DNA from: Minisyncoccota bacterium
GTDB lineage: Bacteria; Patescibacteriota; Minisyncoccia; Phycocordibacterales; UBA1006
Reading direction: 5' to 3'
Length of the DNA: 64,000 nt
NCBI GenBank assembly: GCA_021734445.1
Contig: JAIPIY010000001.1
Span: forward strand, 31,849-95,848
Shown: positions 48,668-64,000 of the stretch, piece by piece
Numbering within the stretch: the first letter of the stretch is position 1
Layout of the letters: each line of letters begins with the position of its first letter
The notes under the pieces: generated by a model
The model's database searches: none
Told to the model about the DNA's origin: nothing
What the model saw: only the letters and a program-made list of their open reading frames with translations
Program-made: the position numbers and the translations under genes

Positions 48668-51600
48668 TTATTTTGATTCAGTTTCAAACGCTGTATCAAT
48701 GATCCCCTTTGTAACAGAAAACGGCTCAGAAGTAAATACAGGAGTATATGATTCATCTGCATTTTTTGCTTCGATGGTAATATAATAGTTTCCATTTGCT
48801 ATCAAACAATAATATCTTCCTCTTTCATCAATAATTACGTGCTTGATTTCTTTTTGCAGTTTTGCAGAAAATACACGAATAATTCCAAATGACAATGGAA
48901 CACCACGATGCGTAACCGTTCCATGCGGATGTGGTTTTAATAACGTAACACGAACAAAAAAGATGAGAATATATGCGACAAATACAATAATATTTAATGT
49001 TGACGGTAATACAAACAATGTCCATGTTGCAATTCCAAAACCAATCCAAAAGAATAGGCTGGCTATTTTAACCAATATGGCTTCATGTTTCACATCAAAA
49101 CTCATGACACCCATTTCTTTTTTCGCAAATTCATTCCAATTAAATTTCAATGGATCCATGGGAATATTGTGTTTGATTACTTGCCCTTCTTCGGTGATGA
49201 TTATCTGTCCTCCAAAATACAGATTGTCATATACTGCGTCTTTTGTAGTATTTGCCAGTTTTTGTGATGGGAATTGATAATCTGTTTTGTGAATCACAAG
49301 GGTATAGGTTCCTGGTTTCACCAAAAATCCATACCGACCATCCAAATCAGTAATAGAAGTTGCTACTTCGTTACCGTTTACATCCATCAACATCACATAT
49401 GCTGGATCAAGAGGTTGTTTGGTTACTGCATCATATACAACCCCCCATTTTTCTACTTTTTTCTTGAGACCAAGACCCGACAGTAGGAAATTCCACAATC
49501 GCATAGGTACCGTAGATAACTGTGGTAACAATGCCATGCCTGCGGTTGCAATACCGGCAACACTGGCCAAGATACCTAATGTGGTCATTGTTTTACCAGT
49601 AGTGCTTTGCACAAAATCAGTTACAGAAGCAACTATTTCTTCAATGAAATCAGTGAATCCTGATGATGAGCCATCTGACCCCTGATTATCCGTAGTTGAT
49701 GATAAGGTATCTTCATTATCATCAAAAGGAAAATCTTCAAATTCCTCTTCAGTATCTTCCATATCTTCTTCATCTATGGGCTCATCTTCGTCTACCGGGT
49801 CTTCGGTTGGTGATTCTGGGGTTGGAGTATTTGGTGAATCAGTAGGCTCTCCTGTTGTTGGTGGCTCACCGGTAGATGTAGTTGTTGGAACAATAATAGC
49901 CGAACCTCCAGAAGAAGATGTGCTATCTGTATTTGAATCTTCTTCCTCATCTTCTGGCTCTACTGCTTGAGTAATAGCAAATGATGAAAAAGAGGTGGCA
50001 TTAAAAATACATCGATTTTTACTATCAATAGTACACTGAGTTAACGCAGACCAAGAGCTTGATTCTGGGGATTTGTGAAATACTGTATATGTTTCTCCTA
50101 TGATAATTCCGGGTATATTTTCAAGCTGAATTTCAACAGACTGAGAAGCCTGTAAATTACTGTTTGGTAATCCAAAAGAAAAACTACGCAGAACTTCTTG
50201 ATTATCAATACCGGGTAGTGTAGTAAGGCCCAAATCATCTATTAACGTCAGGGCTTCAAAATTTGTTTTACCTAAATATCTAAATTCAGTCCCTGCATCA
50301 ATCGTAATTCGATCATTAATAGAAATTGAATCAAAGACAATAGCATTATTAAACAATGCGCGTATACCATTTGTTCCTTCGAATCTCTCTCCCCAACCCT
50401 CATTCAGGGGTTCATATATTCCTGATCTATACAAAGACCAAACAAGATCATCTCCAGAAACAGTGTAAGAATTAGTTGCATCAAGCCAAGAAATTTGAGA
50501 ATTATCAACAGCATTAGGGTTCATATACCCATATCCATATCCATACGTGAATTCATTCCCAGGAGCAGAAGATCCACCAGATGTATCATATTTTGAAACT
50601 TCTAATTTCCATCCAGCAGAAGGGGCCGTATCTATATGAAGCACATGCGGAACATCTTCAGATAATACAAAATCCAACCCATACATGCTCGTAAAAGAGT
50701 CTCCTAATAAATCCATTCGAAACCAAGCACTACCATCTACAAGCCTTTCAACTGATGTATTATAATTCAATGGATTACCATCATCCGAATATGCCACATA
50801 CAATACTCCATCCGAATCAGCTTCCATTTTAATATATTGAGGAGCATGACTTGAAAAACCTTGTGCGCCGACAAAAACACCTCCACCAGAAGAAACATCT
50901 TTTACAGAAACATGCCCGCCTCCATATGCATAGTCCTGATATGCAATATACAAACTATCATCGACAGATACCATATCAAAAGAACCCGATATAGTTGTAT
51001 ACAATGGATGTAATAGAATTGATTCCCACTCTAATGCCAAAGTTTTCACATCAATACGATACAAAGAACCATCATAATATTTATAAGCAACATAGAGATC
51101 ATCATTATCATCAATAGAAAAACTCAATACTGACATAGCCCCGGTAGCAACAACCTCTGTTGTTGGTCCTTCTACATTTTCCCAATCAGGTCCATTGTCA
51201 TATTTTAAAACACGCAGAGTTCCCGTATCATTAATAGCAACATGAACAACGTCCTGTGAATCCAGAGCGATTGCATGATCATACATAGTAGCAAGAGTCA
51301 TAATAGGACCAGCACCAATCACTTGCCAAGAACCACCAACCAATTTAATCACCGTGGGCCCAGTAGTTCCCTGGAATAAAACATAGGGCACATCCTGAGA
51401 ATCCAAAGCAATCTTTGGTCGGGAACCCGTAAATCCCGTTTCCTGAAATGTATTCCATGACCCCTCTGTGTATCCAACAACTTTTATGGCACCTGAAAAA
51501 TTATCCACATACGCCACAGCAATTTTATCATCTGAACCTCTTGCCATGGAAAACCCTTGTGCCAGACCAACCGATGTAGTAGGAAAAATATTTTCTGAAA

Positions 51601-51838
51601 TATCAACCCATACTGGATTTGAAACCATTCTATATCCCGCTAACTGTCCCAAATCCCAACCATATCCGTATCCATAACCATATCCATAGCCATATCCCCA
51701 ACCAACAGACCCTGTTTGCCGTGCAAACTGAGCAAAAGCAACACCCGAACTGGCAATCAATCCAATAATCAGAATAGCAATGAAACTTTGTTTTTTTGTA
51801 ACGAAAAAATTGTGTATTTTTTTTATGTGCTGGATCAT
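48668..51838 (-). CDS. Large surface protein: signal peptide, (GY)n motifs, beta-propeller-like region, acidic linker, carboxypeptidase-regulatory-like domains and TM segments
   Basis: [23 protein letters not shown]; repeated [36 protein letters not shown]. Confidence 0.8.
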
Positions 51839-51894
51839 AATGATTTTTTTATAGTAATAGCTTGCGTCCTATAGTATACTATACACACAAAAAT

Positions 51895-61804: not shown

Positions 61805-62740
61805 TTATCTACCCAATAATGCTTTTATAACTGCAAGAGTTTTTGGACCAACGATACCATCTACAGTAAGTCCATGTTTTTCTTGGAATTTTTTTACTGC
61901 TGCATCTGTCAAGGGACCAAAATATCTTGTTTCGTTTCCAGGTGATCCGGCACCAACTACTGCAAGTTGTGTCGCAGGGTCACTGTTAAGGAATTGTTGA
62001 AGTTTCAGAACATCATCTCCTAACATGGAAATACGTAATGTTCTTTCAAGTATTTCTGATAGATTCATATCACCCCCCAGAGATTGTAATTGAGCTTGAA
62101 GAATTGCAACCATATGGAGCAATAATCCACGTAGTTGATTTTGCAATGTTGGAACATCAGATGATAATAGTATTGGATTAATAGCTGAACTACTTCCTCC
62201 TGAAGAACCACCTCCGCCACCAGAACTACATGCAGAAGTTGATTTAGTTGTAGCGTTATTATTCCATATATTTCCACCAGCATCTTCAGATAATACACGA
62301 ACATCATATTCAGTACCACAAGTAAGACCGGTAATAGTTACCGTATATTCATCAGCTGTTTCTAATTCAGGATCAGTAGATGCATCATAGTCACCTTCAC
62401 CATATTCTACAGAGTTTGTTGCAGTATAGGTTGTTGTATAGGTAACAGCAAGAGTTGTTTTTGTTGTATCAATAGAATTAATCACTGCAGATCCATCGTC
62501 TCCAAAGAATCCATAGTCACTGTAATTATTTACACCAGATTTAAAACTGTAACCATATCCATATCCATCACCATTATCATAACCATAACCATAACCATAA
62601 CCAAACTCCAACAGAGGAAGTGTTGTTCGATAGAACTGTGCATAGGCAACAGCACCGCCGGCAAATGCAAAAATCATACCTAATACAAGCATTTTTTGTA
62701 TTGAAATATTTAGCCCACGTAATGTATTTTTAATATTCAT
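61805..62740 (-). CDS. Secreted protein with (GY)n motif, fn3-like domain and C-terminal PG_binding_1 domain
   Basis: Start [83 protein letters not shown]. Confidence 0.85.
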   Translation of the reverse strand: MNIKNTLRGLNISIQKMLVLGMIFAFAGGAVAYAQFYRTTLPLLEFGYGYGYGYDNGDGYGYGYSFKSGVNNYSDYGFFGDDGSAVINSIDTTKTTLAVTYTTTYTATNSVEYGEGDYDASTDPELETADEYTVTITGLTCGTEYDVRVLSEDAGGNIWNNNATTKSTSACSSGGGGGSSGGSSSAINPILLSSDVPTLQNQLRGLLLHMVAILQAQLQSLGGDMNLSEILERTLRISMLGDDVLKLQQFLNSDPATQLAVVGAGSPGNETRYFGPLTDAAVKKFQEKHGLTVDGIVGPKTLAVIKALLGR

Positions 62741-62900
62741 AATCTTTTTCTTTATATTGTTATTAATGGCACTTTGCACAAGATACTTATAGTATAGGCA
62801 ATTTTTGAATATAAAACAAGAAGTTATCCACAGTTTTGCATAAAACAAAATTAACCCCAAAACTACAATAAATCATAAAAAAGTGTATACTAAAAACGCA

Positions 62901-64000
62901 ATGAGTACACAACACCAATCATGGCATACCTATGTATTTCTCATCCTCTTTTTCTTGATATTGGTCGGAGGGGCTTTTTTACGTTTTTACAAATTAGGAC
63001 ATCAGTCATTATGGATTGACGAAGGGTATTCCATCAACGCCAGTCAGGCAGTACTAGACCATGGATACCCGACATTGGATTCCGGTGAAAATTATACTGG
63101 TCATATATTCTCCACCTACATCATTGCGGGTTCTATGCAATTATTTGGTTTTGAACCCTATTCCCCATGGAGCGCCCGATTACCTTCGGTGTTATTTGGC
63201 ATCGGCGTTATATTCATGACCTACATGTTTGCCTACCGATTAACAGAAAACCGCTGGGTCGCATTGGGGGCAATGTTATTTGTCGCATTTTTGCCCTGGG
63301 AAATTGCCTGGTCACGTCAAGCCCGCGGATATGTGATGTTACAATTTTTCCTTCTTTTGACATTTGATAAACTGATATACATTATCAAAAGCATTCATAC
63401 AGATGATTTTAAAAATAAATTACAGCATCTGGGATTATTATTATTGTATGCCATTTTAGGTTTTCTCAGTCACGGAATCGGTATCGCATTTATTATACCC
63501 ATTGTCATACTATTGGGAATAGTAGTATATACACAGAGAAAAAATAGCTCACCTTGGTTATGGATGACAACCGCGATTATGGGTGCTTATGTTTTGTATC
63601 GTGGAATTAAATATGTATTTAATGTATCTCTTGAAAATTATTTTTCTTCTTATGCGCATTTTCTGCTACAACAGTATCCACTAGAAACAGTGTTTACCAT
63701 TGTTGGTATTATCAGCATGTTTTTCTTTGCCCAGAAAAAAATCAACGCCGTATGTATTACCGCAGGCATTGGTATTCCTGTTATTGTTTTGTCTTTGTAT
63801 ACATCAATACAGATGCGCTATTTAGTACCCTTGATACCCTTTTTAGGTAGTATGATTTCTTATGGAATATATAATACGATTGATCTATCTCAAAAAACAT
63901 TCTTTCCTGATTTTAATAGAAAACATATAATTGGATGCATCAGCATGGTTGGGATTATTCTATTATTGGTATTACAGCCTGCATCATTTATCCCCCAATC
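62901..64000 (+). CDS. Second GT-C membrane glycosyltransferase, paralog of 51895-53376 (runs off the window; absent from ORF track)
   Basis: Manual translation MSTQHQ..LRFYKLGHQSLWIDEGYSINA..PYSPWSARLP..PWEIAWSRQARGY; TATACT just upstream. Confidence 0.88.
   Translation, partial: MSTQHQSWHTYVFLILFFLILVGGAFLRFYKLGHQSLWIDEGYSINASQAVLDHGYPTLDSGENYTGHIFSTYIIAGSMQLFGFEPYSPWSARLPSVLFGIGVIFMTYMFAYRLTENRWVALGAMLFVAFLPWEIAWSRQARGYVMLQFFLLLTFDKLIYIIKSIHTDDFKNKLQHLGLLLLYAILGFLSHGIGIAFIIPIVILLGIVVYTQRKNSSPWLWMTTAIMGAYVLYRGIKYVFNVSLENYFSSYAHFLLQQYPLETVFTIVGIISMFFFAQKKINAVCITAGIGIPVIVLSLYTSIQMRYLVPLIPFLGSMISYGIYNTIDLSQKTFFPDFNRKHIIGCISMVGIILLLVLQPASFIPQ

Follow-up and report, generated by a model that had tools for sequence, protein, structure and literature searches.

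Why should a secreted protein bearing a run of Gly-Tyr repeats be encoded head-to-head with a membrane-bound glycosyltransferase, and why twice in a single locus? The question is raised by a 64,000-nucleotide stretch (hereafter the window) of a Minisyncoccota bacterium of the Patescibacteriota (GenBank assembly GCA_021734445.1, contig JAIPIY010000001.1, positions 31,849 to 95,848), which forms part of contig C6 in the source genome G000 (672 kb, 11 contigs, 90% complete). In each of the two modules, the gene of a Gly-Tyr tagged protein (GY1 or GY2) diverges from that of a glycosyltransferase of the C type (GT-C1 or GT-C2), with intergenic gaps of 56 and 160 bp. An earlier sequence-only reading had recognized this duplication, and all four ATG start codons and the quoted motifs were confirmed in the DNA. 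The pairing of tag and GT-C was found to be real and conserved across two domains of life, and a glycosylation mechanism for it is plausible. No description of such a pairing was found in the literature searched in full text.

The sequences GYGYG or YGYGY occurred in two of the 658 open reading frames (ORFs) of the genome, GY1 and GY2 alone, compared to a mean of 0.2 and a maximum of 2 in 50 shuffles. GY1 is composed of a signal peptide, a first GY arm, an inserted beta-propeller, a second GY arm, and a beta-sandwich domain, followed by a linker rich in Ser, Thr, Pro, and acidic residues, a transmembrane helix, a CarboxypepD_reg domain, and C-terminal transmembrane segments. GY2 includes a signal peptide, two GY arms, an FN3-like domain, a Gly/Ser linker, and a peptidoglycan-binding domain. 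In line with the earlier claim that the two proteins are otherwise unrelated, they gave no mutual BLASTP match at E<0.01 when the whole genome was searched. The GY tracts were present as described, except that the second arm of GY1 had not been listed and that the spacer from the preceding Arg to the tract is seven to eight residues instead of two. In homologs without the propeller, this second arm lies about 20 residues beyond the first. The longest GY run contained from 2 to 10 tyrosines across all tagged proteins. The first arm of GY1 is encoded by mixed synonymous codons, indicating that the arm is maintained at the protein level. The first arm of GY2 is a perfect (GGTTAT)4 in the DNA, a hexamer that could vary in length in frame through slippage.

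In the predicted structure of GY1, based on a 12-row alignment, the propeller and the sandwich were folded, while both arms had predicted local distance difference test (pLDDT) scores below 50, and the arms are predicted to be disordered in the monomer. The propeller best matched the PLL/PHL lectins (E 6e-11, target TM-score 0.6), with other propellers close behind. Three further features of GY1-type genes were observed. At the end of the sandwich, the loci L302, L019, and L258 contain the sequence C..C.FTTTH(L/F)S.F (corresponding to window 49964-50100 on the minus strand of GY1; columns 610-640 of alignment A4), which we take to resemble GPS/ZU5-type autoproteolysis motifs; GY1 of the window instead reads NATSFSSF at this site, without the His. 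In the genome G175, three tandem GY1-type paralogs (L260:12671-20000) share a near-identical tag and have diverged propellers, which suggests a swappable adhesin cassette. Additionally, the 56-bp gap between GY1 and GT-C1 holds a perfect palindrome, TATAGTATACTATA (window 51870-51883), that may supply a -10 box to both strands.

The facing enzymes share a sequence identity of 40% over 521 columns, and both contain the motifs SLWIDEGYSINA, PYSPWSARLP, and PWEIAW.RQARGY. Only three PMT_2 matches were found in G000, all at the studied locus: GT-C1, GT-C2, and the gene right after GT-C2 (GT-C3). The PMT domain also exceeded its cut-off, at 26.6 bits, and the PMT and PMT_2 models cover ArnT-like enzymes as well. 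Of 106 homologs, 59 were aligned as family A; the relatives of the window GT-C that carry a name were mainly from Paceibacterota and other Patescibacteria. Invariant residues of this family include W38-D40-E41, R93, W137, R142, R306-Y307, and a Q-P of the soluble domain; D40 and E41, in external loop 1, were conserved in all 59 aligned sequences and in 15 of 15 sequences of a set with two archaeal members. In a FastTree phylogeny, which carried long-branch warnings, family A was separated from other PMT_2 proteins by a branch of 100% support, and tag partners appeared in most of its main subclades. Both window enzymes fell into one clade (95% support) together with those of the genomes G810 and G811.

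The GT-C model (pLDDT 90.6) adopts a GT-C_A fold with multiple transmembrane helices. STT3 and Pmt4 were tied in the fold comparison with ArnT close behind, while ArnT ranked first by Foldseek and by sequence among solved structures: ArnT 5ezm was the sole sequence match in the PDB (23.7 bits, E 2e-4, 13% identity), and no NCBIfam ArnT match was obtained. STT3 and AglB align along the whole model including its soluble domain; the Pmt4 match is confined to the membrane part (model residues 6-370), and the C-terminal domain aligns with ArnT and STT3. As all three are near by fold, the fold fixes neither the donor nor the acceptor. An assignment as a WsaB-like transferase could not be retained: WsaB and WsfB are Wzy_C proteins, the window enzymes belong to PMT/PMT_2 of the GT-C_A type, and Wzy_C matched neither GT-C1 or GT-C2 nor any other protein of the 90% complete G000. 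YfhO likewise gave no match for GT-C1, GT-C2, GT-C3, or the second GT-C family described below.

Conservation of the pairing was analyzed in 71 loci fetched by two family-A motifs. A GY gene was found within 2.5 kb of the GT-C in 16 of the 37 loci scoring at least 280 bits, in 2 of the 11 between 165 and 280 bits, and in none of the 23 below, against a background of one GY protein among 525 distant ORFs. A pairing absent elsewhere would have refuted the earlier reading; these counts instead support its proposal of the (GY)n tract as a portable tag with a genetic tie to the GT-C. The position of the partner varied: it is divergent in loci of the Paceibacteria type, directly downstream in those of the Moranbacteria type, and upstream in a Verrucomicrobia-labelled locus. 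In most of the Moranbacteria-type loci, the GT-C and tag genes were side by side with no match to 13 glycan-pathway queries beyond generic ATP-binding cassette (ABC) ATPases. Of 400 genomes sampled evenly across the order, five contained YGYGYGYG, as four secreted tags and one unrelated tail, and nine contained family A; three of the four tags face family A (p 3e-5, or 8e-5 counting the fifth genome, values inflated by kinship). When 15 genomes with an apparently untagged family-A locus were searched for tags elsewhere, a full tagged gene was located 27 and 18 kb off in G810 and G811, at the opposite end of the same glycan cluster; a tag occurred elsewhere in the genome in G812 and G969, and at or across a contig break in G817, G818, and G819. 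In two loci without (GY)n (L026 and L032), the GT-C follows proteins with xGYY repeats. A short family-A clade (L021, L027, L030, L039, and L096) is missing about 65 residues from its membrane part and has D-E-A/I/V in place of D-E-G; it adjoins Cys-rich secreted proteins with few GY, with GT2 or GT2 plus LAB_N in L021, L027, and L039, and possibly has a changed acceptor.

The pairing extends to DPANN archaea. Among 150 genomes of the phylum to which a Woesearchaeota-labelled locus belongs, YGYGYG was found in 19, and in 13 the gene product is a secreted protein whose conserved Cys-bearing N-terminal domain holds a variable GY loop, one of them carrying PGF-pre-PGF. Family A was present in 12 of the 150 genomes, five of which are tagged (p 0.001), and in two cases the genes are head-to-head.

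In G182, which has the last of the four tags from the order sample, the tag lies two genes after a 540-amino-acid membrane protein without a Pfam match, which defines a second GT-C family (family B; 58 of the 120 homologs listed were aligned). Its profile match to family A is weak (probability 66%). It is related to MmpA, reaching 97.2 bits against NF053599, below the cut-off of 210, and it also matches AftD-type clusters, including the Atlas GT-C_AftD cluster at 0.98. Family B matched 12 of 400 phylum genomes; the best three (607-731 bits) fell in those three genomes whose tags are long and N-terminal, where it sits two genes upstream of the tag. Family B was not found in any of five family-A genomes, and core family A was not found in any of four family-B genomes. 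One tagged protein family, QFxRxxG..GW(GY)n..GY..YGYGY with a beta-sandwich, accompanies both enzymes, and GY1 is a member of it with the propeller inserted between the arms. The term cognate, applied earlier to the enzyme, is therefore too strict, because both GT-C families are found paired with the same tagged protein families. A conserved membrane protein of about 215 amino acids, with no Pfam or NCBIfam match, separates family B from the tag gene in four of four loci (L256:9994-10632; L220, L257, and L258).

The genes between the modules were as previously claimed, some of them below cut-off (Table 1), whereas the wider context did not support the view that the modules bracket a single cluster. 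In the same-genus genome G001, of which 37 kb of the locus were read, module 1 is kept, as is an ABC cluster whose polymerase is longer; no WsaF gene, free sulfotransferase, or module 2 was found there, and only one GT-C matched. Module 2 heads a cluster of its own past the window, where GT-C2 is followed by GT-C3 (717 amino acids, PMT_2) and a Wzx-type cluster (G000 C6:96273-105086) with GT4, WecB-like, and Wzx-like genes identified by eye; gene order is similar in G324 and G375. The modules are thus two clusters side by side. Inspection of the sequence revealed a GtrB-like GT2 at G000 C6:107352, 11 kb beyond GT-C2.

Table 1. Features of the two modules and of the genes between them, in window coordinates
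Feature	Coordinates	Strand	Remarks
GY1	48668..51838	-	1056 aa; ATG at 51838
GY1 arm 2	50525..50545	-	YGYGYGY; residues 432-438
GY1 arm 1	51659..51697	-	residues 48-60; 11 residues past predicted AFA/Q cleavage
GT-C1	51895..53376	+	493 aa; family A; PMT_2 41.5 bits (cut-off 26.1); head-to-head with GY1
WsaF-like GT4	53642..54853	-	WsaF_N/WsaF_C; accessory, not found in G001 locus
Multidomain protein	54819..57878	-	Sulfotransfer_3 19.8 bits (below cut-off 27); RgpF over cut-off; accessory
Sulfotransferase	57882..58535	-	Sulfotransfer_2; accessory, not found in G001 locus
Wzt	58538..59761	-	C-terminal Wzt_C; accessory
Wzm	59758..60537	-	accessory
GT4-like glycosyltransferase	60544..61677	-	below cut-off; accessory
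GY2	61805..62740	-	311 aa; ATG at 62740
GY2 tag	62549..62602	-	GYGYGYGY 62579-62602 and GYGYGY 62549-62566; arms four residues apart
GT-C2	62901..64000	+	504 aa; family A; ends at 64415, beyond the window; head-to-head with GY2

The multidomain protein, in which a coiled-coil-like region was seen by eye between the sulfotransferase-like N-terminus and RgpF, is likely a terminator, ruler, or polymerase. Together with the Wzt_C-bearing Wzt, its composition would fit chain termination by sulfation that is read by the exporter. Window positions 52001-58000 have a GC content of 0.32 compared to about 0.37 genome-wide, as expected for a variable glycan cluster. Elsewhere in the window, a secreted 1049-amino-acid protein with repeats, one stretch of which looks S74-chaperone-like by eye, is encoded at 40312-43461 and was not found at the equivalent place in G001, and a class I ribonucleotide reductase, its small subunit bearing an ATP-cone-like region, is encoded at 44748-47818.

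The 13 glycan-pathway queries were applied to about 10 kb around 22 tagged loci and 16 others. Wzm and Wzt occurred together in one of the former and two of the latter, G810 and G811; the clade of the window enzymes may have a genuine ABC link, which is not general across tagged loci. The proposed sulfated rhamnan lost ground, as neither G000 nor G001 yielded an RmlC match and a search of the incomplete G000 for APS kinase found none. A priming phosphoglycosyltransferase (PF02397, WcaJ-type) was also not found in G000 or G001. The MraY family is likewise missing from G000, and the absences of Rml, priming, APS kinase, and Wzy_C genes are therefore weak. With a GtrB-like GT2 present and no priming enzyme found, a donor linked through a monophosphate is favoured. 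Carriers of this kind are used for the assembly of euryarchaeal glycans.

We infer, tentatively and at somewhat less than an even chance, that the GT-C places a polyprenyl-phosphate-linked sugar or short glycan on the tag tyrosines outside the membrane; tyrosine glycosylation of any kind is slightly better than an even bet. The signal peptide or anchor evident in the sequence would export the protein, with the tag near the N-terminus or in a loop and its arms predicted to be disordered. A GtrB-like GT2 would load the lipid and a flippase, which varies by locus among SMR-like, LAB_N, and Wzx proteins, would move it out. The invariant W-x-D-E loop of the GT-C_A enzyme would then transfer the sugar to the Tyr hydroxyl, with the flanking Gly giving access, and a second, larger GT-C, whose gene often comes next, may lengthen the glycan. 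Adhesin-like proteins anchored in the wall or membrane would in this way come to bear a dense brush of glycans. By extension, Patescibacteria and DPANN archaea may have in common a Tyr-glycosylation pathway in which a repeated GY sequon, grafted on unrelated surface proteins, is read by a dedicated GT-C_A clade or by an unrelated, displacing MmpA/AftD-like GT-C, a proposal we regard as possible while falling short of probable. A sugar on the amyloid-capable GY tract could also control the assembly of the symbiont surface coat.

Several observations weigh against Tyr glycosylation by the paired enzyme. Genes of surface proteins often adjoin glycan clusters, and two unrelated GT-C families for one tag would also fit a loose co-location. 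The family-B comparison is partly circular because the family was picked from a tag neighbour. A strong match to the GtrB-like GT2 was found in only three of the 22 tagged loci, with weak matches in three more. No GYGYG protein was found in 8 of the 15 genomes with an orphan family-A locus, and 8 of the 13 tagged DPANN genomes are without family A. The flanks of seven of these eight were read: five have another protein with 7 to 11 transmembrane segments, mostly without a family match, in a nearby glycosylation cluster, one has Wzx/WecB-like genes beside the tag, and in G881 no glycosylation gene was found within the 12-15 kb read around its two tag genes. With such genomes, the link between tag and GT-C is strong and not strict. 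The G881 genes themselves (L357:6646-11373 and L358:3654-5447) encode proteins with long GY loops and lie among toxin-antitoxin-like and ribosomal genes. Further, the nearest solved relative, ArnT, modifies a lipid, and a GYGYGYG peptide has been described to form fibrils by itself (PMC8163036). Finally, windows with at least 50% Ser/Thr were present in 22 of 37 tagged rows, one of which is a false positive, compared to 14 of 115 untagged secreted-like rows in a raw count with no length correction, so a classical acceptor is available.

These Ser/Thr-rich windows, among them those of GY1 (maximum 0.60) and GY2 (0.55), are the basis for an alternative in which the GT-C glycosylates its neighbour on Ser/Thr-rich linkers, in the manner of Pgf or GT39 enzymes, and the GY tract is a docking tag or assembly motif. 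The tied Pmt4 fold match is consistent with it, as is a Caldicellulosiruptor GT39 gene described beside presumed substrate genes and as required for protein glycosylation (PMC6151902). We consider it unlikely, as all eight small Moranbacteria-type partners scored were without Ser/Thr windows (0.25-0.40) and the range of tyrosines in the tags would suit an array of sites more than a fixed docking motif. Another improbable explanation, modelled on GtrABC and ArnT, has the GT-C decorating a surface polysaccharide or lipid and the GY arms forming amyloid-like beta zippers, with a shared envelope role accounting for the neighbourhood. ArnT as nearest solved relative speaks for it, and so do the fibrils, in which the Gly were modelled as packed inside and the Tyr as exposed (PMC8163036), the reported modification of ABC-exported O-polysaccharides by three-component systems (PMC11127046), and the occurrence of both tags without a nearby GT-C, as in G881, and family-A genomes without tags; a hairpin would also suit two-armed tags. 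It is opposed by the direct adjacency, which persists through changes of orientation and domain of life, by the distant PMT_2 enzymes with their complete lack of tag neighbours in 23 loci, and by the Moranbacteria-type loci with no further glycan-pathway match.

In the sequence-only reading, the GT-C was an oligosaccharyltransferase moving a whole Wzm/Wzt-exported chain, possibly a sulfated rhamnan, onto Tyr. The full-length alignment with STT3 and AglB is in line with this role. In G810 and G811, from the clade of the window enzymes, a single cluster includes the GT-C together with wzm/wzt and has a tag gene at its distant end; in G810 it also has rmlABCD-like genes (by eye), and no Wzy_C ligase was found in G000 to receive the polymer. 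Oligosaccharyltransferases have a relaxed glycan specificity, which would allow for varied clusters. Their loop 2 carries an acidic DxD, where the window enzymes instead have WSRQARGY. Given also the single tagged locus with Wzm and Wzt, the missing PF02397, RmlC, and APS kinase in incomplete genomes, and the missing WsaF and free sulfotransferase in the G001 locus, transfer of a whole chain appears quite unlikely. Still less probable, to the point of being marginal, is some other Tyr chemistry with an incidental GT-C, be it phosphorylation of the kind known from BY-kinase clusters, sulfation, or dityrosine cross-linking. (GY)n is indeed common as a BY-kinase tail (53 of 68), and sulfotransferases occur in the window cluster. 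However, the tag is exported, BY-kinase queries were unmatched in G000, the free sulfotransferase matched in none of the 22 other tagged loci, and the conserved neighbour is the GT-C. The BY-kinase tyrosine cluster (TIGR01007) offers the same (GY)n as a multi-Tyr array, but it is cytoplasmic, C-terminal, and on the kinase, in contrast to the N-terminal or internal tracts on secreted proteins without a kinase domain, and no family A or B GT-C was found in 121 metagenome loci.

Among known systems, the closest functional analogue of tag glycosylation by the GT-C would be the streptococcal Pgf and GtrB/PgtC2 pathway. As described for that pathway, a GT-A lipid-sugar synthase and GT-Cs act outside the membrane on disordered regions, adhesin substrate genes lie in the cluster, and each locus has two GT-Cs; in contrast, its acceptors are Ser/Thr-rich and its enzymes of the YfhO type, where Gly-Tyr and PMT/PMT_2 or MmpA/AftD-like enzymes are found here (PMC12041528). 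The slg clusters of Geobacillus stearothermophilus (WsaB) and Paenibacillus alvei (WsfB) are described with similar Wzm/Wzt, WsaF-like GT4, and multidomain polymerase components, and the Tyr-O-linkage by WsfB is a precedent; their transferase has Wzy_C and serves two to four sites per protein, unlike the repeat tag (PMC2943079). Of the slg-type features, no Wzy_C, Rml, WsaP-type gene, or SLH match was found here. The ArnT and GtrABC enzymes are not known to have a conserved protein partner. ArnT (GT83; PDB 5ezm/5f15) is the closest PDB and Foldseek match, and a GT2 and a small flippase lie beside many family-A loci as in GtrABC systems, but the acceptors reported for these enzymes are lipid A or polysaccharide (PMC11127046). 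The GT39 PMTs (Pmt4; Caldicellulosiruptor bescii Cbes_1864, PMC6151902) differ in that Pmt4 matches the membrane part only, and no Tyr acceptor is described for them in the literature compared.

In the accounts available, Saccharibacteria have only a predicted pilin glycosylation (PMC11623550), and the known bacterial Tyr-glycans rely on Wzy_C-type transferases, with Tyr O-glycosylation treated as an open question (PMC2943079). If true, the proposed pathway would add a tyrosine glycosyltransferase of the GT-C_A fold that acts on a defined sequon. The short, portable sequon and its candidate enzyme would open the chemistry to tests on a synthetic peptide and might provide a compact tag for glycoengineering. 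Moreover, they would give a handle on the envelopes of bacteria from the candidate phyla radiation (CPR) and of DPANN archaea, episymbionts with poorly understood surfaces, and would represent an envelope module common to both domains.

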